Both the position numbers and the translations under genes were made by a program. The notes under the pieces were generated by a model. That model was not told the DNA's origin, searched no databases, and saw only the letters and a list, made by a program, of their open reading frames with translations. Of a stretch of DNA of 44,211 nt, positions 25,440 to 34,516 are shown piece by piece (positions within the stretch are counted from its first letter, which is position 1; each line of letters begins with the position of its first letter). Origin of the DNA: Candidatus Hodarchaeota archaeon (GTDB taxonomy: Archaea > Asgardarchaeota > Heimdallarchaeia > Hodarchaeales > Hodarchaeaceae); NCBI GenBank assembly GCA_016839785.1, contig JAEOTQ010000024.1:1-44211 (forward strand), given 5' to 3'.

Positions 25440-27503
25440 TCATTTCGTAAGTAAGTTCCTTAGCTCAATTAATACTTTGTCAATCTCGTTATTTGCTTTC
25501 CTAAGTTTATTATCATAATCGATTTTTAACTTAGCATAGGCCTCTTTTCCGATCCGACCTTGTGTCTTCTTCTTCTCTAATGATTCGATATTTAGTAAGT
25601 AATCTTCTCTACTAGCTTCAGCAACTTCAATAGATCGCATTGACAACCGTATTCGAGGATTTTTCTCCGAGAGTTTGCGTGAAACTGTAACAATTGTCCT
25701 ATCATTCTGTTGTTGTTGATTTCGGAGGATAATTTTCGTTTGTTCATATTCTCTAGCACTAATATTCTTCGATTTTCGTTTTCGATCTAACCTTAGAATT
25801 TGTTCACGAATTGCTGTTTTTTCTTCATATGATTTAACGAAACTTTTAATCATATCTAAAGGTATTTCTTCAAGTACAAGCTTGGTGGGTGTGTATCTGA
25901 ATGAGAAGTTTCTAACAAAAGCATATGCAAGACCAATTAATAAAAAGAATACTGAAAAAGTTAATGGAGTGTAAAGTTGGTTTAAGGGACTCATACCAAA
26001 TTCTATCCTCATTTGCTTGTTGCTAAGAGGGGTAATTTCTTCAAAACTAAATCGATATCCTCTACTATTAAACAATCCTAAGAAATGGTTTTTTTGAATA
26101 GCTGTAATGGAAACGGGACTTCTTAATGAACTTCTGTAGGTTGCGTCAGTAATCTTTGTTTCGGTTATTGAAGATCCGAACGGGAAAAGAAGTTCAAGCT
26201 CATATTTTTGAATTGTACAATTAAAGCTCATCGATAAGTCAGTTAATAGTTGAACTTTTCCTCCTCCGAGATTGTTAATAACCTTGGATGTTGGTTGTGC
26301 GTAAGAGAGAATGATATCATACTCTGCACCTTGTTCTATCTGAATTCTTGGTTTAAACTCAACTGATTTTTTCTGTGTCACTGGATCTGCATTTATCAGA
26401 GGAGTCATATTTCCATAATTATCAGTGATCCCAATTTTTCCTGATGAATCTGGTACATTGAATGATATTGTTGGAAAAGTGGGGCCTCCCAATGCGGTCG
26501 ATAATACGGGGCCAGATTTTAAACCTATATTCTTAATAGTTATGGTTTGTTTGGTGTACACGGTTCCCCATTCTGATACTTCGATAGTGGTCACTAAAGA
26601 TGTAAATGTCATAAAAGTCCCACTAACTTGGTAATAATCAATCGTCAAGTAATCAGTGAGATTTTGAGCAAGATTAGGGTTGTAAGAAGGAATGAAGTTT
26701 CGATCTGTAAGTGCTGTGAGGTTATAACTCCCGTATTCAGACTGATTTAACATTTCACGATCTATTGATTCTAATTCTTGGATATCCTCATACTGAAGAG
26801 TAGTTGCCTCTTGAGTAATAGTGCCAGTAAAATTGGTTTTAGTGGGGTTTAATGTATCATTATTTATTTTGATATCAACATCTGTTCCTACTCTCCATTC
26901 TAAATTGTATGAAGTTATGGGAATAGTAATAAGAGGTAAGAAACTTAAATTAAATTGGTAAGGATATTCAGTTTCCACTAGCTCATCGTTTTCATCATAA
27001 GAAATGGCATTTGGATGGTCCATATCTATGATTATTGTGACTAGTTCTTCAGAACCAATTGTAGGGAATTTAATAACAATTTCTGTTGTTTCGTTCCCAA
27101 TGTAGACATCGTATGTTGTGTTTTCTGTCGCTGTATCGTTTTCAGAGTAGATTCTGACATACTTAGAAGAATTAAACTCCATTGTTGGTAGGGTATAATT
27201 TAAGGCGTTGATGTCTTGGCTAGTATTAGTTGATATTTGAATTTCGGTTCTGGATGAAGTATACCCATATTGGTTTGCGGTTATAGTTCTATCTACGTTG
27301 ATTAGATGACTTGTGTTAGTAAATTCAGTAACATTGAAATACATTAATTCTGAGACATCAAGATTGTTTATTTTTGTATTCACTGAATCGGTGACCGTAT
27401 TCGCCTCACCAGCGTTAGCTTGGGTATCAGCGATCAAGAATGTCGAAGTGATAACTAATGCGAGTATTAAAAAACGCAAACCATTTCCTAGGATTTTCTT
27501 CAT
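25440..27503 (-). CDS. Ribophorin I (Ost1/RPN1) homologue, oligosaccharyltransferase accessory subunit
   Basis: Signal peptide; two repeated beta domains (VDRTITANQYG; TTIEVSEWGTVYTKQTITIKN; DNYGN); single TM; helical cytoplasmic tail. Confidence 0.85.
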   Translation of the reverse strand: MKKILGNGLRFLILALVITSTFLIADTQANAGEANTVTDSVNTKINNLDVSELMYFNVTEFTNTSHLINVDRTITANQYGYTSSRTEIQISTNTSQDINALNYTLPTMEFNSSKYVRIYSENDTATENTTYDVYIGNETTEIVIKFPTIGSEELVTIIIDMDHPNAISYDENDELVETEYPYQFNLSFLPLITIPITSYNLEWRVGTDVDIKINNDTLNPTKTNFTGTITQEATTLQYEDIQELESIDREMLNQSEYGSYNLTALTDRNFIPSYNPNLAQNLTDYLTIDYYQVSGTFMTFTSLVTTIEVSEWGTVYTKQTITIKNIGLKSGPVLSTALGGPTFPTISFNVPDSSGKIGITDNYGNMTPLINADPVTQKKSVEFKPRIQIEQGAEYDIILSYAQPTSKVINNLGGGKVQLLTDLSMSFNCTIQKYELELLFPFGSSITETKITDATYRSSLRSPVSITAIQKNHFLGLFNSRGYRFSFEEITPLSNKQMRIEFGMSPLNQLYTPLTFSVFFLLIGLAYAFVRNFSFRYTPTKLVLEEIPLDMIKSFVKSYEEKTAIREQILRLDRKRKSKNISAREYEQTKIILRNQQQQNDRTIVTVSRKLSEKNPRIRLSMRSIEVAEASREDYLLNIESLEKKKTQGRIGKEAYAKLKIDYDNKLRKANNEIDKVLIELRNLLTK

Positions 27504-29628: not shown

Positions 29629-31026
29629 TTATATTGACGAATTCAAGTTAATTTGATTTTTTTCCTCAGGCTCTTTAGTATTAATAAGAATGAGAATTCC
29701 AAGCGCACTAAGGATGAAAAGAAAGAGGATTGCTTCGGATATTCCAATTTTTTCCATAATTTGGCCTAAGAGGCTGAATCCAAGTATGGAAATAATGAGA
29801 GATACTGTATTGAAGTAAGATTCTTGAGAGCTTCTATACTCTGAATTTGTTATATCATAGTATAACTGCCAGTGAAGGCCTGAGGTCAATCCACTGATAA
29901 GAAGCCGACTCAGGAAAATAATTACAATAAAAAGAAGTTTCCAATAAACGCTTGTATTGAGTAGGAGAATGAAGAAGAATGAAATCCAAGCAAAAGGGAA
30001 ATTAATACTATAAAATACAATTAAACCCTGACGGGGAGATTTAATGGACGCTGTAAATCTTCCTGAAAATCTACTAGATATTCCGTATACAAGATCCGTA
30101 ATTGAATTTACCAGGGATAAAATTAAGATAGCTACCGAAGCGAAATCGATTGTAAAGTAATTTCCACTCCCAAAATTTTCAGGAGATAATAAAAAATACA
30201 CCAATACTGGAAAAATGATTGTTGTAAAAGCCAATGAAGTAAAGCTCAGTATTCCAAAACATAGAAAATAAGGTGAGACATGAATGTAATTAACCATGAG
30301 TCTATTAGCCATACTTACAATATATGATTTTTTAAGGGTTGTTTCATTTTCTGATGGCAGAATAATATGTCTATTCCGTTCTATGGGTCTATAGTTCACC
30401 ATAATGGTGCATCCAAAGATGAATCCCACTAATGCAATAAATCCTTGTAGTAAAAATATCAATTGGGGAGCTAAATGAGCTTGAAATAATAAAAATCCTC
30501 CTAGAATTGTTAAAGAAGAAACTGCAATCATTTTAACAAATTTTACATTGCCCATGGTACTACGAAACAGCTTATCACTCTTTTCATTTTTATCGATAAG
30601 ATTTTCCCAAGAATTTAGAAACCATGCAATGAATGAGCCTGAAAGAAGAGCGGAGAATATACCAACTAATATTTCAAGGCATAATAGCTGAAACGAAGTT
30701 TTAGCGAAAATCAAACCGAAATAATATATTGTTAAACACCCCAAAGCACCACAAAATGCCCCTCTTTGCCCAAATCTGTCGGTGAGTACCCCCAAAGGGA
30801 GATCCAAGACGATTCCAAAAATCATACCAGTTGCTACAATACTTCCAAAAAGGGCGTACGATCCAAGAATTGAAATATAATATAAAGAAATCCATGTATG
30901 ACTAAGGTAAATTACTGCAATAATGAGCTCGAGACTGAAAAATTTCAAAGTTAGACTTTTCAGCTCTTCAGGATAATTTTTAACCCCCAATAAGGTATCA
31001 ACATATAGCACATGCTTGACCTCCAA
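29629..31026 (-). CDS. MFS transporter
   Basis: About 12 TM segments; motif A GVLTDRFGQR; ALLSGSFIAW; YRSSQES. Confidence 0.9.
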   Translation of the reverse strand: MEVKHVLYVDTLLGVKNYPEELKSLTLKFFSLELIIAVIYLSHTWISLYYISILGSYALFGSIVATGMIFGIVLDLPLGVLTDRFGQRGAFCGALGCLTIYYFGLIFAKTSFQLLCLEILVGIFSALLSGSFIAWFLNSWENLIDKNEKSDKLFRSTMGNVKFVKMIAVSSLTILGGFLLFQAHLAPQLIFLLQGFIALVGFIFGCTIMVNYRPIERNRHIILPSENETTLKKSYIVSMANRLMVNYIHVSPYFLCFGILSFTSLAFTTIIFPVLVYFLLSPENFGSGNYFTIDFASVAILILSLVNSITDLVYGISSRFSGRFTASIKSPRQGLIVFYSINFPFAWISFFFILLLNTSVYWKLLFIVIIFLSRLLISGLTSGLHWQLYYDITNSEYRSSQESYFNTVSLIISILGFSLLGQIMEKIGISEAILFLFILSALGILILINTKEPEEKNQINLNSSI

Positions 31027-31047
31027 GTTAACAAAGAAAATTCCTAA

Positions 31048-32421
31048 TTATGTAGGTGAAAGTTGCTGTGCGATACTGGAGACTAAACTAAAGTTAACAA
31101 TAGGGAAAGATTGAGAATTCACCTCTCCTCCAGAAATGATGACTAGATACGGTACCTTACCTAAATTCTTTTTATAATATTCAAGATATTGTTGAAATCG
31201 ATCTCCGACAATCATTGCACGATTTCCACAATCAAAGAATAAACCAAATTTGGTGTTGTCTTCAATTAAAGATGATAAGCTTTTATCTAACAAGTTTTCA
31301 ATTGTTACCGCGCTTTGGTTACAAATATACGATTGGAATTGTTCTTTATAATCAACATATAGCTTTTTAGCTACCTGATTCGGTGCTGTAATTAAAGCAT
31401 GATTAAGATTTGGATTTATTGAAAGTCCATATAAGTTCTGACTCTTTTTATTATCAAGAATACATAAAGGTCTAAAGGGGTGATAGTAAAAGTATTTTTG
31501 GGTACATTCTTCAAGAATTTCTGGAGTTTTCTCCATCTCAAATAATTTAAGCAAAGAAATTGCCCCCCATTGCCCGTTTATACGTGGGATGAAACCCCCA
31601 TCTAAATAACTGTCAAGAGAAAATGGTTTTTGATAATCTACTGTCGCTCCGGTGTCCGTTTTACTCATAAATCTTAATTCGGGAGAACTCAGAGATATAA
31701 ACGTCATAGAATCTTTAAATGCTTTATAATTGTAAAACTGGTACGATTTATTCATTGAAATTGAGTCTACACCAAAGGTACCAGTATAATGAATACCTCG
31801 TTCATATAATTCTTGAAATAATGGCCATGCTGATGAATATGAGATTCCAATACCACCTATGTTCATGAGGAAATTAACAATTTTCCCTGAAAATCGGGAA
31901 AGAGCCGGAAAATCCCTCCAGACTCGATTATTTAACGCAAAGAATGGATTAAAGCCTTTAAGTCTATGGTTCAATAAATTTACCATAAGTTTTGGGAATC
32001 CTAGACCAGGTGGGAAAAAAATAAAACTTGTAGAAGAATTCTGTCGTAATTCTTTAGTTTCAATGTCTGTACATTTCTTTAAGATTTTCTTCGTTTTAGC
32101 CATAGTTCTAATACGAAAACGCTTTACAAGCTGTGTTCTAACAGAGATACCTGAAAAAAACATGATAGCTGCTCCTTTCAAACCATAATCCTGATTATTG
32201 GCTATTCCAATTCCTGAGCATCCCGCTAATGGAGTGTTAGGATATTTCTTCTTAATGATCTTCAAAGATTGACTATAGATATTTTTTCCACCTGGATGAG
32301 TTCCTGTAAAGTACAGAATTCCAGTTGGTTGAGTATTCAGCTCTTTTTCAGCCTGTTCAAGGGCGTTTTTCGTAGCCAGTTTTAAATTGTGATTGATACA
32401 TAGACCAACGGATGCTTTCAT
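31048..32421 (-). CDS. FIST-domain sensory protein (FIST_N + FIST_C)
   Basis: PLAGCSGIG (FIST_N); FFDCGNR and GGEV...VNFS (FIST_C). Confidence 0.8.
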   Translation of the reverse strand: MKASVGLCINHNLKLATKNALEQAEKELNTQPTGILYFTGTHPGGKNIYSQSLKIIKKKYPNTPLAGCSGIGIANNQDYGLKGAAIMFFSGISVRTQLVKRFRIRTMAKTKKILKKCTDIETKELRQNSSTSFIFFPPGLGFPKLMVNLLNHRLKGFNPFFALNNRVWRDFPALSRFSGKIVNFLMNIGGIGISYSSAWPLFQELYERGIHYTGTFGVDSISMNKSYQFYNYKAFKDSMTFISLSSPELRFMSKTDTGATVDYQKPFSLDSYLDGGFIPRINGQWGAISLLKLFEMEKTPEILEECTQKYFYYHPFRPLCILDNKKSQNLYGLSINPNLNHALITAPNQVAKKLYVDYKEQFQSYICNQSAVTIENLLDKSLSSLIEDNTKFGLFFDCGNRAMIVGDRFQQYLEYYKKNLGKVPYLVIISGGEVNSQSFPIVNFSLVSSIAQQLSPT

Positions 32422-32426
32422 TGTTT

Positions 32427-32867
32427 TTAATCCCCTATTGATTGTTTCCTATCAATTATTAATCCTAATCGTTTCGCGGTTCTGCTCATCTCTATTTCCA
32501 TTAATCCTGTATTTGCTCTTGAATGTAAAATTGCAACTAGAATTCCTGAATTACCAGTACGATAGAAATAAACCGGTATCGCTTCATTTTGATTTATCTG
32601 CTTATTATATTTTATGGATCTTGCACCATGTTTGAGTTCTTCTTTGGTTTTGGAAATAATCTCTTTAACCCACTTAATAACGGATAATATCAAGTTAGAA
32701 GTTTCTGTATCATAAAAAGATGATATTACTCTACCATCTAAACGAAAAAGAATTGTCGCTTTCACATCTCGAAAAGTGAAAAGATGGTTTGCTTCTGTCT
32801 GGATAGAGGAGATCGCTTTTGTTAATCTTAAAGCCTGGTCGTCAATTTCACGCGTTTGAGATATCAT
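32427..32867 (-). CDS. Roadblock/LC7 (LAMTOR/MglB-like) domain protein
   Basis: VKATILFRLDGRVISS...ILVAILHSRANTGLMEIEMSRTAKRL matches the roadblock pattern; ATG 32867 overlaps the KaiC gene end by 20 nt. Confidence 0.8.
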   Translation of the reverse strand: MISQTREIDDQALRLTKAISSIQTEANHLFTFRDVKATILFRLDGRVISSFYDTETSNLILSVIKWVKEIISKTKEELKHGARSIKYNKQINQNEAIPVYFYRTGNSGILVAILHSRANTGLMEIEMSRTAKRLGLIIDRKQSIGD

Positions 32868-33597
32868 ATACAATAAGTCCTTTATCCTTTTGGAAACCGA
32901 TGGGTTGAGGAGTTTCAGAGTGCGATGATCCACGGAATTTTCTTATGCTTAATGTTCTATTGTAAATTCCCCCTAGTCCGATATGTTCAAGTTCTATTAT
33001 AGAATCAGACAGAAAAAGAGGAATTCTTGCCAACACATCGCCAAAGCCCTTTTCTAATGTAATTACTGATGTTCCAATTTCTCTTAAGGAAGAAAAAATA
33101 CGATTAATTGCATTACGTTGTTGATTTGGGTCCGAGATTTCAAGGAGTAATGGGGTCAAAGGATCAATTGCTATTCGTATACCTCCGGAATATTTGGAGG
33201 CGGTTTCCTTTATCACTTCAAGATATTTAGGAAGTTCATTCATGAAAAATCTTAATCCAATCTCTCCTGAAGTTAATTCTGAATCAACATTGAAAGCAAC
33301 TTGGAATTGTAAATTTCCTTCTCGATATTTCTTGTTAAAGTTTTTTAGGCCGATATCGCTACAATCTCTTAATACCGAGTTTATATTCTGTTCTAAAGAA
33401 ACATAAAGCGCTGGAGTATGTAGATCATCAGAACAGTACTGCCAACAAAAAGTGGATTTGCCACACCCAGGATCCGCAATGATTACATTCACTGAATGCT
33501 CTCTAAATCCACCATTCACAAGCTTGTCAAACCCGATAACGCCACTGTGTATTCTCGAATTTTGCTCATTAATCGTTTTTCTTAATAATTTTTGCAT
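32848..33597 (-). CDS. KaiC/RAD55-family ATPase (single domain)
   Basis: SGVIGFDKLVNGG, Walker A DPGCGKS, YVSLEQ, IAID, RTLSIRKFRGSSHS. Confidence 0.92.
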   Translation of the reverse strand: MQKLLRKTINEQNSRIHSGVIGFDKLVNGGFREHSVNVIIADPGCGKSTFCWQYCSDDLHTPALYVSLEQNINSVLRDCSDIGLKNFNKKYREGNLQFQVAFNVDSELTSGEIGLRFFMNELPKYLEVIKETASKYSGGIRIAIDPLTPLLLEISDPNQQRNAINRIFSSLREIGTSVITLEKGFGDVLARIPLFLSDSIIELEHIGLGGIYNRTLSIRKFRGSSHSETPQPIGFQKDKGLIVYDISNA

Positions 33598-33607
33598 AAT
33601 TAATTCC

Positions 33608-34216
33608 TCATGAAACTAGAAGTTTGTTAGACAATTGTTTGTTTGAGTTTGAAGATATATTACTTAATTTGCTGTTTTTTCTTTCGATCGTTAGTAGGAC
33701 TTTCTCAAAAATATTCATGACTGATTTTATATCCTTAGCTGAACATTTAAAAGAAGTAATACAGTTGAACCTTTGAATATATCGTGCTAAATTAAAATTT
33801 TTCTCATCATCGGTTGCTAAGTCGGATTTAGTGCCGATTAAAAATCGTGGGATAGTCGGTGTTATGAACTCAAGCCATTCAGAAAGATTGAATAAGGAAG
33901 AAAGATCGGTAAGGTCAAAACAAAGTAATGCTGCATCTGCACCTTTGCAGAACTCACCAAAGACTCCCATATGTTTGAAATGTTCTTGACCCCCAAGGTC
34001 CCAAATCTGCAATTTACTCACATCCTTGTCTGAATGGGTGATAATCTTTGAATGGAACTCAACTGCGATCGTTTGTTTCGATTTCGTAAAAAAATAATTA
34101 TCAATGTATGATTTAGAAATTGTAGTTTTTCCTACACCTCCCTCTCCTAAAAGTACTATTTTTATCGGTTTTTTTTCTTTCGAAGGAACTAACTGCAAAT
34201 AATACACCGATTTCAT
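33608..34216 (-). CDS. Rab-like small GTPase
   Basis: G1 GEGGVGKT, G2 TIAVEF, G3 WDLGGQE, G4 TKSD, G5 SAK; no C-terminal prenylation Cys. Confidence 0.95.
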   Translation of the reverse strand: MKSVYYLQLVPSKEKKPIKIVLLGEGGVGKTTISKSYIDNYFFTKSKQTIAVEFHSKIITHSDKDVSKLQIWDLGGQEHFKHMGVFGEFCKGADAALLCFDLTDLSSLFNLSEWLEFITPTIPRFLIGTKSDLATDDEKNFNLARYIQRFNCITSFKCSAKDIKSVMNIFEKVLLTIERKNSKLSNISSNSNKQLSNKLLVS

Positions 34217-34303
34217 AACTTGAGCTTTTCATTTTAAAGTCCCTAAAATAATGGATTTCTGGGATATTATAAACAAACTTGGGCTAATTCCTACGATTGA
34301 ATC

Positions 34304-34516
34304 ATGAAAGCACACAATGTTTTGAAAGGAATTCTTTCCAGAAAAATAAGCATACAGAATAAGAGAAGAGGTTCCCCACTTGTGGAAGAAGGAATTTTGA
34401 TAGGGTTAAGTTTATTCGGTTTTCTATTGATATTTTCCATTGTTACAGGAGTTTTGGACTGGCTTTTGATAAATGCAGATGAATTACTGAGAGAACTTGG
34501 GTCGTTATTTCCATAA
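34304..34516 (+). CDS. Short class III signal-peptide (type IV pilin-like) protein
   Basis: KRRG|SPLVEE followed by a 20-aa hydrophobic stretch; Glu at +5. Confidence 0.65.
   Translation: MKAHNVLKGILSRKISIQNKRRGSPLVEEGILIGLSLFGFLLIFSIVTGVLDWLLINADELLRELGSLFP

Follow-up and report, generated by a model that had tools for sequence, protein, structure and literature searches.

Five co-oriented genes of a Hodarchaeales-type archaeon encode a Rab/Ras-like small GTPase, a KaiC-like ATPase, a roadblock/LC7 protein (here RBL), a FIST protein and a transporter of the major facilitator superfamily (MFS), and they are read here as one version of a conserved signalling operon of Heimdallarchaeia. They lie within positions 1 to 44,211 of contig JAEOTQ010000024.1 (assembly GCA_016839785.1, Candidatus Hodarchaeota archaeon), and this whole stretch of 44,211 nucleotides (nt) is termed the window. 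The source genome is G000, with 4.04 Mb in 248 contigs and a completeness of 84.5%, and its place is in a Hodarchaeales-type genus of the Heimdallarchaeia. Under the reading that we favour, at a rough probability of 0.55, KaiC, RBL and FIST would form the core of a GTPase switch of the kind known from MglA–MglB and the actinobacterial conservons, with FIST as its input. The gene order, the families and folds of the proteins and the conservation of the KaiC–RBL–FIST triad are observed, and an interface between FIST and RBL is predicted by structural modelling.

All five genes are on the reverse strand. The GTPase gene (33608..34216 (-), 202 aa) is first in the cluster and is followed by the genes for the single-domain KaiC-like ATPase of the RecA superfamily (32848..33597 (-), 249 aa), RBL (32427..32867 (-), 146 aa, its start overlapping the KaiC stop by 20 nt), the stand-alone FIST_N–FIST_C protein (31048..32421 (-), 457 aa) and, last, the MFS transporter (29629..31026 (-), 465 aa, TTG start). 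The original prediction had described five co-oriented genes with gaps of 10, -20, 5 and 21 nt, and the same values are obtained from the list of open reading frames (ORFs) with the third gene started at the ATG at 32867. A longer ORF with a GTG start spans 32427-32933 for this gene; the internal ATG, giving 146 aa, is preferred because orthologues align from residue 1 and public gene calls measure 143–149 aa. The internal gaps are too short for separate promoters. An AT-rich, divergent intergenic region of 87 nt (34217..34303) lies 5′ of the GTPase gene and is the candidate promoter region of the cluster: direct reading of the sequence places TTTATAAT and CTTTAAAAT boxes, a candidate promoter, 5′ of the GTPase ATG, and a T5 run is found 3′ of the MFS stop.

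The five family assignments made in the original prediction hold, those of the GTPase, KaiC, FIST and MFS proteins by Pfam and that of the roadblock protein by profile and fold searches. The GTPase matches Pfam Ras at E = 3.4e-31 (108.5 bits against a cutoff of 21.6) and Roc at 3.5e-22. It contains GEGGVGKT (G1), WDLGGQ (G3, DxxGQ), TKSD (G4, [NT]KxD) and SAK (G5, SAx), motifs that are kept across the alignment of the genus, and is thus a small GTPase of the Ras superfamily. Among proteins of solved structure, its sequence comes nearest to Ypt7/Rab7 (1.2e-21), followed by Rab9 and Rab11. Rab proteins in the eukaryotic sense carry a C-terminal cysteine prenylation motif; the window protein has no C-terminal cysteine, ending in ...NKLLVS (LL[IV]S across the genus), and is Rab-like by similarity only. 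Nor is it a Rag/Gtr protein, since at 202 aa it is without a C-terminal roadblock domain, and its match to Gtr1_RagA covers residues 19–81 only and stays below the cutoff (20.9 bits, cutoff 22). Searches with one query each (E <= 1e-8) give 35–40 small-GTPase matches per genome in the window's genus (G000, G008, G010, G012) and 19–21 in Heimdallarchaeum-type genomes (G024, G028, G032, G038).

The KaiC-like protein matches Pfam PF06745 'KaiC' at 6.6e-29 (101.4 bits against a cutoff of 26.6) over profile positions 2–228 of 231. Its RecA-like domain retains Walker A (PGCGKST), Walker B (IAIDPLT) and the glutamate in SLEQ, and on these grounds it is a KaiC family ATPase. It is not a circadian KaiC proper, having a single domain of 249 aa against two tandem domains (about 500 aa), and the NCBIfam KaiC models stay below their cutoffs (PRK09302, 83.9 bits against 408; TIGR02655, 44.3 against 546). 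Archaeal single-domain KaiC-like ATPases are reportedly signalling hubs, as Makarova, Galperin and Koonin are said to have argued in 2017; here too a single-domain KaiC-family ATPase is encoded within a putative signalling operon.

For RBL, Pfam and NCBIfam offer no usable match: the best are MglB at E = 0.043 and Pfg27 at 0.057, and the local Robl_LC7 model gives none. A profile built from the alignment of its orthologues (A1) matches PDB entry 7f8m, a 'Robl_LC7 domain-containing protein', over the full length at E = 2e-6. The AlphaFold2 model (predicted local distance difference test score, pLDDT, 87.5) has an alpha-beta-beta-alpha-beta-beta-beta-alpha topology. Its top Foldseek matches (E of about 2e-6, probability 1.0) are the MglB structures 1j3w, 3t1r and 6izw and the Asgard roadblocks 9jue and 7f8m, and roadblock domains of Ragulator/Rag (5y3a, 6s6a, 6ulg) are also among the matches. 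By its fold and its similarity to solved roadblocks, RBL is a roadblock/LC7 protein of the MglB-like kind. The family comprises 125 clusters, many members of which bear the JGI label 'predicted regulator of Ras-like GTPase activity (Roadblock/LC7/MglB family)'. It forms an Asgard-restricted family of its own, with a precomputed Pfam accession (PF27410) that is absent from the local Pfam copy. Among longer proteins, the roadblock search returned one fusion only, P0005 (337 aa; one cluster, source Logan, two contigs), which joins a Heimdallarchaeum-type roadblock to a Ras-like domain. The Ras-like domain is degenerate, having lost its P-loop and G3 motifs, and so is a pseudo-GTPase; as a single example, the fusion suggests that the RBL family is tied to GTPase-fold partners.

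In the FIST protein, FIST_N is recognized at 9.8e-9 (35.8 bits against a cutoff of 23.2). FIST_C, at 4.6e-5, reaches 24.0 bits and falls below its cutoff of 28.5; it scores 26.5 bits in the Heimdallarchaeum-type protein and exceeds the cutoff (31.0) only in a more distant relative of the type found in group f14. No sequence relatives of the protein are present in the PDB. The best Foldseek match of its AlphaFold2 model is the FIST protein FBXO22 (8ua6_C at 1e-5, then 8ua3 and 8s7e), with an identity of about 9–10% and TM-scores of 0.36–0.50. No FIST fusion was found among proteins of at least 803 aa, which is weak evidence as the size range of 460–800 aa lies outside this screen. The transporter matches MFS_1 at 6.7e-10 (38.8 bits against a cutoff of 33.4) and contains GVLTDRFGQRG, presumably MFS motif A (between transmembrane segments TM2 and TM3); together these place it in the major facilitator superfamily. 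Its closest clusters in the Atlas are without exception MFS_1 and name no substrate.

The association of the genes is conserved throughout the window's genus. The FIST gene occurs in 21 of 21 same-genus genomes, and close, Hodarchaeales-type relatives of the window protein are 51–86% identical to it, against 22–27% for the distant relatives in Heimdallarchaeum. Genes were located by tblastn at 20 loci of the genus, of which 18 cover every cluster position. Of these, 15 have the full set of five in the order of the window, and all 18 have KaiC–RBL–FIST. Two loci (L028 and L040) have 235 and 200 nt between the small ORF upstream and KaiC, and therefore have no GTPase gene; in a third (L030) the GTPase has decayed, with loss of its P-loop and G3. 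The two incomplete loci are L039, which ends at a contig edge, and L026 (G016), where KaiC and the GTPase are missing solely through a 100-N scaffold gap within the roadblock gene. The MFS gene lies directly 3′ of FIST in all 19 genus loci that reach beyond FIST. Across the genus the order runs from a Csl4-like gene through a Rio-like gene, a gene for a KH protein and a 70-aa ORF to the cluster, and on to SecY and a 687-aa ORF. As the whole neighbourhood is syntenic and hence inherited, the genus counts are not independent evidence.

Evidence of a different kind comes from beyond the genus. A profile of the FIST protein matches 61 of 301 genomes sampled across the phylum, with the matches distributed unevenly among the groups that we number with the prefix f: 20/20 genomes in f1, which is the window's genus, 26/29 in f3, 8/68 in f14, 1/11 in f4, 1/7 in f27, 1/1 in f22, and weak partial matches in 2/5 of f20 and 1/2 of f9. 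None was found in f2 (0/2), f5 (0/11), f6 (0/1), f7 (0/3), f11 (0/76) or f17 (0/19). The sole f4 genome with the cluster (G025) has it on a 6.8-kb contig whose KaiC is 77% identical to that of f3 genomes, and this contig may be a binning error.

The Heimdallarchaeum-type cluster has the order KaiC (310 aa), RBL (119 aa), FIST (about 450 aa), GTPase (about 200 aa) and a small CCHH protein (about 105 aa), its KaiC carrying a C-terminal extension of about 60–70 aa. From KaiC to FIST, the stop codon of each gene overlaps the start codon of the next; the spacing beyond is short, the GTPase being attached with gaps of 8 to 45 nt. KaiC–RBL–FIST–GTPase is found in 25 of 26 loci, the 26th starting inside FIST at a contig end, and the same order occurs on 15 metagenome contigs, with the GTPase after FIST in 13 of the 13 that reach beyond FIST. 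The genes are therefore linked in related genomes, the point on which the original prediction had been prepared to fall. Of the 26 loci, 24 have the small CCHH gene and two are cut by contig ends; the MFS gene is absent from all 26. The flanks (ribosomal L10/P1, an OST3-like protein, a PCI-like winged-helix protein and a Rad51-like ATPase) are unlike those of the window, and they vary inside the group (L078, L088-L090).

Two of the proteins in this version of the cluster are worth describing separately. The CCHH protein (L043:7088-7405 (+) and equivalents) has an invariant C-x2-C...H-x3-H pattern and a DG.G..RR motif, and belongs to no Pfam family; as a relative of roadblock proteins it was rejected (hhalign E = 0.23). 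A weak paralogue (E = 0.0017) occurs in the window's genome at L092:1459-1782 (+), directly 5′ of a T2SSE/PilB-type ATPase gene. The PCI-like protein (L043:2885-3652 (-) and equivalents) measures about 255 aa, contains winged-helix repeats and gives weak matches to PCI, E3_UFM1_ligase and DDRGK. It adjoins KaiC in 24 of the 26 loci despite differing outer flanks, is co-oriented in L078 and may belong to the Heimdallarchaeum version of the module.

A third lineage is represented by G063, a genome of a different class (assembly with 9% contamination), in which KaiC (305 aa), RBL (121 aa) and FIST (441 aa) are followed by an MFS gene (404 aa) and then a LarA-like gene, and no GTPase is present at the cluster. 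The G063 transporter (MFS_1 at 6.9e-39) shares just the generic MFS motif with that of the window and is non-orthologous. Metagenome contig L137 repeats the FIST–MFS pair, its MFS being 78% identical to that of G063. On L149 (158-718), a convergent SecY comes straight after a FIST gene 85% identical to the G063 type, and the MFS gene is absent there. This SecY is 67% identical to that of the window, which is likewise convergent on the downstream end of the cluster, and a position beside SecY may be ancestral. A divergent gene just 5′ of KaiC in G063 (L122:3853-4338 (-)) encodes a longin-like protein of 161 aa, with matches to Fuz_longin_1 (1.4e-4) and Sybindin (2.5e-3) that are both below cutoff.

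The KaiC–RBL–FIST genes are judged to be an orthologous triad in these three lineages because the cluster KaiC proteins are reciprocal best matches, RBL has a single strong locus and FIST is single-copy. The window KaiC finds the cluster KaiC in G028, G024 and G063 at 5.8e-32, 6.1e-28 and 2.1e-39, with the next paralogues at 1.6e-12, 3.3e-15 and 1.8e-12; the Heimdallarchaeum-type KaiC finds its counterpart in G000, G010 and G063 at 9.5e-32, 2.9e-32 and 4.0e-66, with the next paralogues at 7.3e-17, 1.7e-14 and 2.6e-14. The margin is 13–27 orders of magnitude, and at least 15 in five of the six comparisons. The RBL profile has one strong locus in G000 (3.9e-65, the next best being 1.3e-3), and the FIST gene is single-copy in that genome. 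Because three lineages carry the triad amid different flanking genes, chance does not account for its arrangement.

The five genes are not, as the original prediction supposed, one fixed unit. The Heimdallarchaeum type has no MFS gene, the third lineage has a non-orthologous MFS gene and no GTPase, and the GTPase is lost or decayed in 3/18 loci of the window's own genus. The MFS gene is a lineage-specific accessory.

The original prediction had named multimer prediction of all pairs as a check, and the one for FIST with a dimer of RBL supports an association. The complex of FIST with two RBL copies has a median ipSAE interface score of 0.76 (runs of 0.76, 0.75 and 0.84), against 0.00 for the best of three controls. 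A mark of 0.76 is reached by 58/80 solved complexes and 2/110 mismatched pairs in a calibration unlike this prediction, which used its own alignments and three chains. The runs share at least 70% of their contacts and the pLDDT of the partners is at least 83. The contact residues of RBL are 28, 31–34 and 117–133, namely the end of alpha1 and alpha3, which make up a four-helix face in the model, and this supports a predicted mode of binding in which FIST occupies the four-helix face of the roadblock dimer. Residues that are invariant and lie in the interface include A118, N119, L122, E126 and R129 of RBL and E305, Q369, S370, I404 and G406 of FIST. The complex appears to be without a solved counterpart, for no related sequence is in the PDB and FBXO22 binds a BTB dimer instead. 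FBXO22 is the closest structural match of the FIST model, and differs from it in having an F-box and another partner. The structure titles and PMC11185555 show it bound to the BACH1 BTB dimer, and thus indicate that a FIST domain can recognize a dimeric protein partner.

The predicted complex leaves free the two-helix face of RBL, the face that MglB uses for MglA: in the MglA–MglB structure (PMC3199381), a single GTPase sits on the two-helix alpha2 face of the MglB dimer. With FIST modelled on one face and MglA known on the other, a FIST–(RBL)2–GTPase sandwich is sterically plausible, and a mechanism for the operon can be proposed on this basis. RBL would dimerize to form a platform. FIST would dock on the four-helix (alpha1/alpha3) face, as predicted, and the Rab-like GTPase would bind the opposite two-helix (alpha2) face in the manner of MglA on MglB. 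The ligand state of FIST (bound or free) would then modulate GTP hydrolysis or nucleotide exchange that depends on the roadblock protein, RBL in effect taking the part of a GTPase-activating protein (GAP) or guanine nucleotide exchange factor (GEF). The KaiC-like ATPase might add an ATP-dependent step, for example binding and release or phosphorylation, in a role like that of CvnA in the conservons. In the window's genus the MFS protein, its gene presumably co-transcribed with FIST, would be an accessory and might, more speculatively, move or report the solute sensed by FIST. A more far-reaching version is tentative and falls well short of even odds: FIST on the four-helix face and the GTPase on the other would make a ligand-gated switch that KaiC resets and to which each lineage adds its own transporters. 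The module would then be a forerunner of Ragulator-like sensing, and its GTPase the first in Asgard archaea with a regulator that can be read from the genome.

Several observations weigh against the operon as a GTPase switch with a KaiC–RBL–FIST core. The wider neighbourhood is syntenic inside each lineage, so that counts within a lineage are non-independent. The GTPase is absent from two and decayed in one of the 18 genus loci and is missing from the G063 cluster; the core can do without it. It sits at opposite ends of the cluster in the two Heimdallarchaeia types, and by BLAST the cluster GTPases of these types do not find each other as reciprocal best matches: that of Heimdallarchaeum ranks about 8th of 19 matches to the window GTPase in G028, and that of the window about 13th of 35 matches to the Heimdallarchaeum cluster GTPase in G000. 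A maximum-likelihood tree of 64 GTPases (quick method, LG+G4; ORFs outside 140–300 aa or with internal stops dropped; the input held 7 of 14 further cluster GTPases of the genus and four further Heimdallarchaeum-type ones) gives each cluster clade good support (100 and 99), places both on long branches (0.94) and joins them as sisters with a support of only 15. A single origin followed by relocation and two separate recruitments are both possible explanations of these sequences. The interface score, for its part, measures the predictor's own confidence, the FIST model is of moderate quality only (pLDDT 69.1), and the enrichment of invariant residues at the interface is about twofold and not significant, both in RBL (5/21 interface positions against 17/125 others, p = 0.19) and in FIST (5/41 against 23/416, p = 0.09). 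The stretch is present in sediment metagenomes, and the assembled contigs of one metatranscriptome library (X16) include two that match 33117-33462 inside KaiC with full identity and none across gene junctions. With RNA cover limited to these 346 nt and DNA carry-over possible, the contigs are a weak hint of transcription and uninformative on operon structure.

Among the alternatives, an unlikely one is the nutrient sensor that the original prediction had in mind, in which the MFS protein transports solutes or serves as a transceptor, FIST has an amino acid or a like solute as its ligand and RBL switches the GTPase in the manner of SLC38A9–Ragulator–Rag. It draws on the MFS gene lying directly 3′ of FIST in two lineages with non-orthologous transporters (the genus, with its 21-nt gap at the window, and G063 with L137) and on the treatment of FIST domains as sensory in the literature (PMC8846402). 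The 26 Heimdallarchaeum-type loci, all without an MFS gene, nevertheless keep the GTPase; G063 has the transporter without the GTPase, so that the two occur together in the window's genus only; and L149, close to G063 in its FIST, has no MFS gene after it. The nearest MFS relatives name no substrate. Like Ragulator–Rag–SLC38A9, the cluster combines a membrane transporter with a small GTPase and a platform of the roadblock fold. Unlike it, the cluster has a Rab-like GTPase in place of a Rag type with its C-terminal domain, one roadblock gene against five, and an MFS rather than an SLC38-type carrier, which most related clusters are without. The proposed likeness to SLC38A9–Ragulator–Rag thus fails on every membership feature compared, and we keep it as a loose analogy. 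Two unrelated MFS genes in two lineages suggest that a transporter was gained beside FIST twice, and the link to transport is a minority reading.

Quite unlikely, too, is the view that KaiC–RBL–FIST is functional alone, the GTPase and MFS genes being mere neighbours through genus-level synteny. The Csl4–Rio–KH–small ORF–cluster–SecY block is indeed syntenic throughout the genus, so that adjacency is inherited, and both the loss or decay of the GTPase in three of the 18 loci and the lineage-specificity of the MFS gene are in keeping with this view. The Heimdallarchaeum type, however, also carries a small GTPase on the core, at the other end and closely spaced; the RBL family includes a roadblock–GTPase fusion (P0005); roadblock proteins are established GTPase regulators (PMC3199381); and an MFS gene was acquired beside FIST twice.

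A regulator of polarity or of surface filaments like that of MglA and MglB, with RBL as GAP and the module controlling type IV pilus-like or adhesion machinery, is improbable. KaiC-like ATPases are partners of archaeal filament motors, and the KaiC-like protein has a weak NCBIfam match to ArlH/FlaH (2.8e-7, below cutoff). The RBL model best matches MglB, roadblock proteins are reportedly frequent in archaeal type IV pilus loci (PMC4858521), the weak CCHH paralogue lies 5′ of a T2SSE/PilB-type ATPase gene, and the divergent 70-aa ORF beside the cluster looks pilin-like in its sequence. Against these stand the absence of any pilus or archaellum gene beside the cluster in the window, a GTPase with the canonical DxxGQ that is nearer to Rab than to MglA, and the weakness of the CCHH link.

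It is very improbable that FIST instead works in a small metabolic pathway, as an enzyme or as a protein that binds a metabolite, and is served there by KaiC and RBL. Its model resembles Toblerone-fold cyclic-amide hydrolases (cyanuric acid hydrolase/barbiturase, E = 5.7e-5 to 1e-3, nearly equal to FBXO22), which makes a catalytic role possible and counts to that extent against FIST as a sensory input, and LuxE- and LuxC-type acyl-activating and reducing enzymes follow the related FIST of f14 and f27, as MFS and LarA-like genes do in G063, but the TM-scores are low (0.3–0.5) on a moderate model, Pfam assigns FIST_N and FIST_C, and what constantly accompanies FIST is a roadblock protein and an ATPase rather than enzymes. 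A role in anti-phage defence is unlikely; PADLOC gave a meaningful match for none of the five proteins, its lone match covering the P-loop only (E = 0.0017).

Among known systems, MglA–MglB likewise pairs the gene of a small Ras-superfamily GTPase with that of a roadblock-fold protein; unlike MglA, the GTPase here is Rab-like with a canonical WDLGGQ, the KaiC-like ATPase and FIST are extra dedicated partners, and RBL belongs to its own Asgard-restricted family. MglB, as a GAP, stimulates its cognate GTPase to hydrolyse GTP in a 2:1 complex, and such a role for RBL would be by analogy. Actinobacterial conservons, as described in PMC4316618, consist of an ATP-binding sensor kinase (CvnA), a roadblock protein (CvnB), CvnC and a small GTPase (CvnD). 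They share with the cluster a four-gene logic of ATP-binding protein, roadblock, third protein and small GTPase. The present system differs in that it is archaeal, a KaiC/RecA-type ATPase takes the place of the histidine kinase and FIST that of CvnC (DUF742), and its GTPase is Rab-like rather than of MglA group 2; Pfam finds no histidine kinase or DUF742 match among the five proteins, which are hence not those of a conservon. NosP, a stand-alone FIST–FIST_C protein, regulates its co-cistronic kinase NahK (PMC8846402), and the window's stand-alone FIST_N–FIST_C protein is likewise encoded beside a putative signalling target, which here is a roadblock protein with a KaiC-like ATPase and not a histidine kinase. 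Within the Asgard archaea, Liu et al. (bioRxiv 10.1101/2020.10.19.343400) predicted an operon that similarly couples a roadblock-superfamily protein, LAMTOR1-like, with a Rab-like GTPase; that operon adds DENN and lacks both KaiC and FIST, whereas the present cluster has no DENN gene.

The original prediction had known of no description of the five-gene combination, and no KaiC–roadblock–FIST(–GTPase/–MFS) cluster was found in the full-text literature searched; supplementary tables (for example the asCOG neighbourhoods of Liu et al.) or the 2017 paper on KaiC hubs may list one. Asgard genomes encode small GTPases by the dozen, together with many proteins of the roadblock and longin kinds. In MK-D1, GTPase genes lie generally outside operons with roadblock, longin or TRAPPC3 genes, as reported by Tran et al. 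2024 (PMC10933270), and matching them to their putative regulators is accordingly difficult. The cluster offers one likely GTPase–regulator match in Heimdallarchaeia, with two extra dedicated partners and a strong, readily testable prediction of FIST–roadblock binding; reconstitution is feasible because all the proteins except the 465-aa transporter are small (146–457 aa) and soluble-looking. If the proposal is true, it would link FIST domains to GTPase control, give the KaiC-like 'hub' ATPases a concrete set of partners and indicate that roadblock platforms integrated sensory input before eukaryotes.

A distant FIST gene lies in another conserved cluster in f14 and f27 (L123-L129; for example L127:3995-10393), which encodes a weakly roadblock-like protein of 134 aa, a protein of 323 aa, a gelsolin-repeat protein, FIST and LuxE-like and LuxC-like proteins. 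The 323-aa protein joins a weakly roadblock-like N-terminus to a proline-rich repeat linker, and the cluster could link FIST to actin regulators. A roadblock assignment for the two genes 5′ of this FIST is weak (Robl_LC7 E = 0.0075; hhalign E = 0.014 over 21 columns for one comparison, and E = 0.0028 with a probability of 11% over 98 columns for a second), and the lineage is not counted as a carrier of the core.

The cluster in the window is flanked by genes for SecY and a KH/Pno1-like protein, and by two that we take, on our own reading of their sequences, to encode a Rio-type kinase and a Csl4-like protein. The 70-aa ORF (34304-34516 (+)) is divergent from the GTPase gene and is conserved at 70–94% identity in 19 of the 20 genus loci. 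It has no Pfam match; its basic N-terminus, RRG, long hydrophobic stretch and glutamate five residues past the glycine resemble a signal peptide of class III (pilin-type). Beyond SecY, a 687-aa ORF (25440-27503 (-)) belongs to no Pfam family above cutoff; it has an N-terminal hydrophobic segment and many N-x-S/T sequons, and is conserved within the genus at 35–77% identity.

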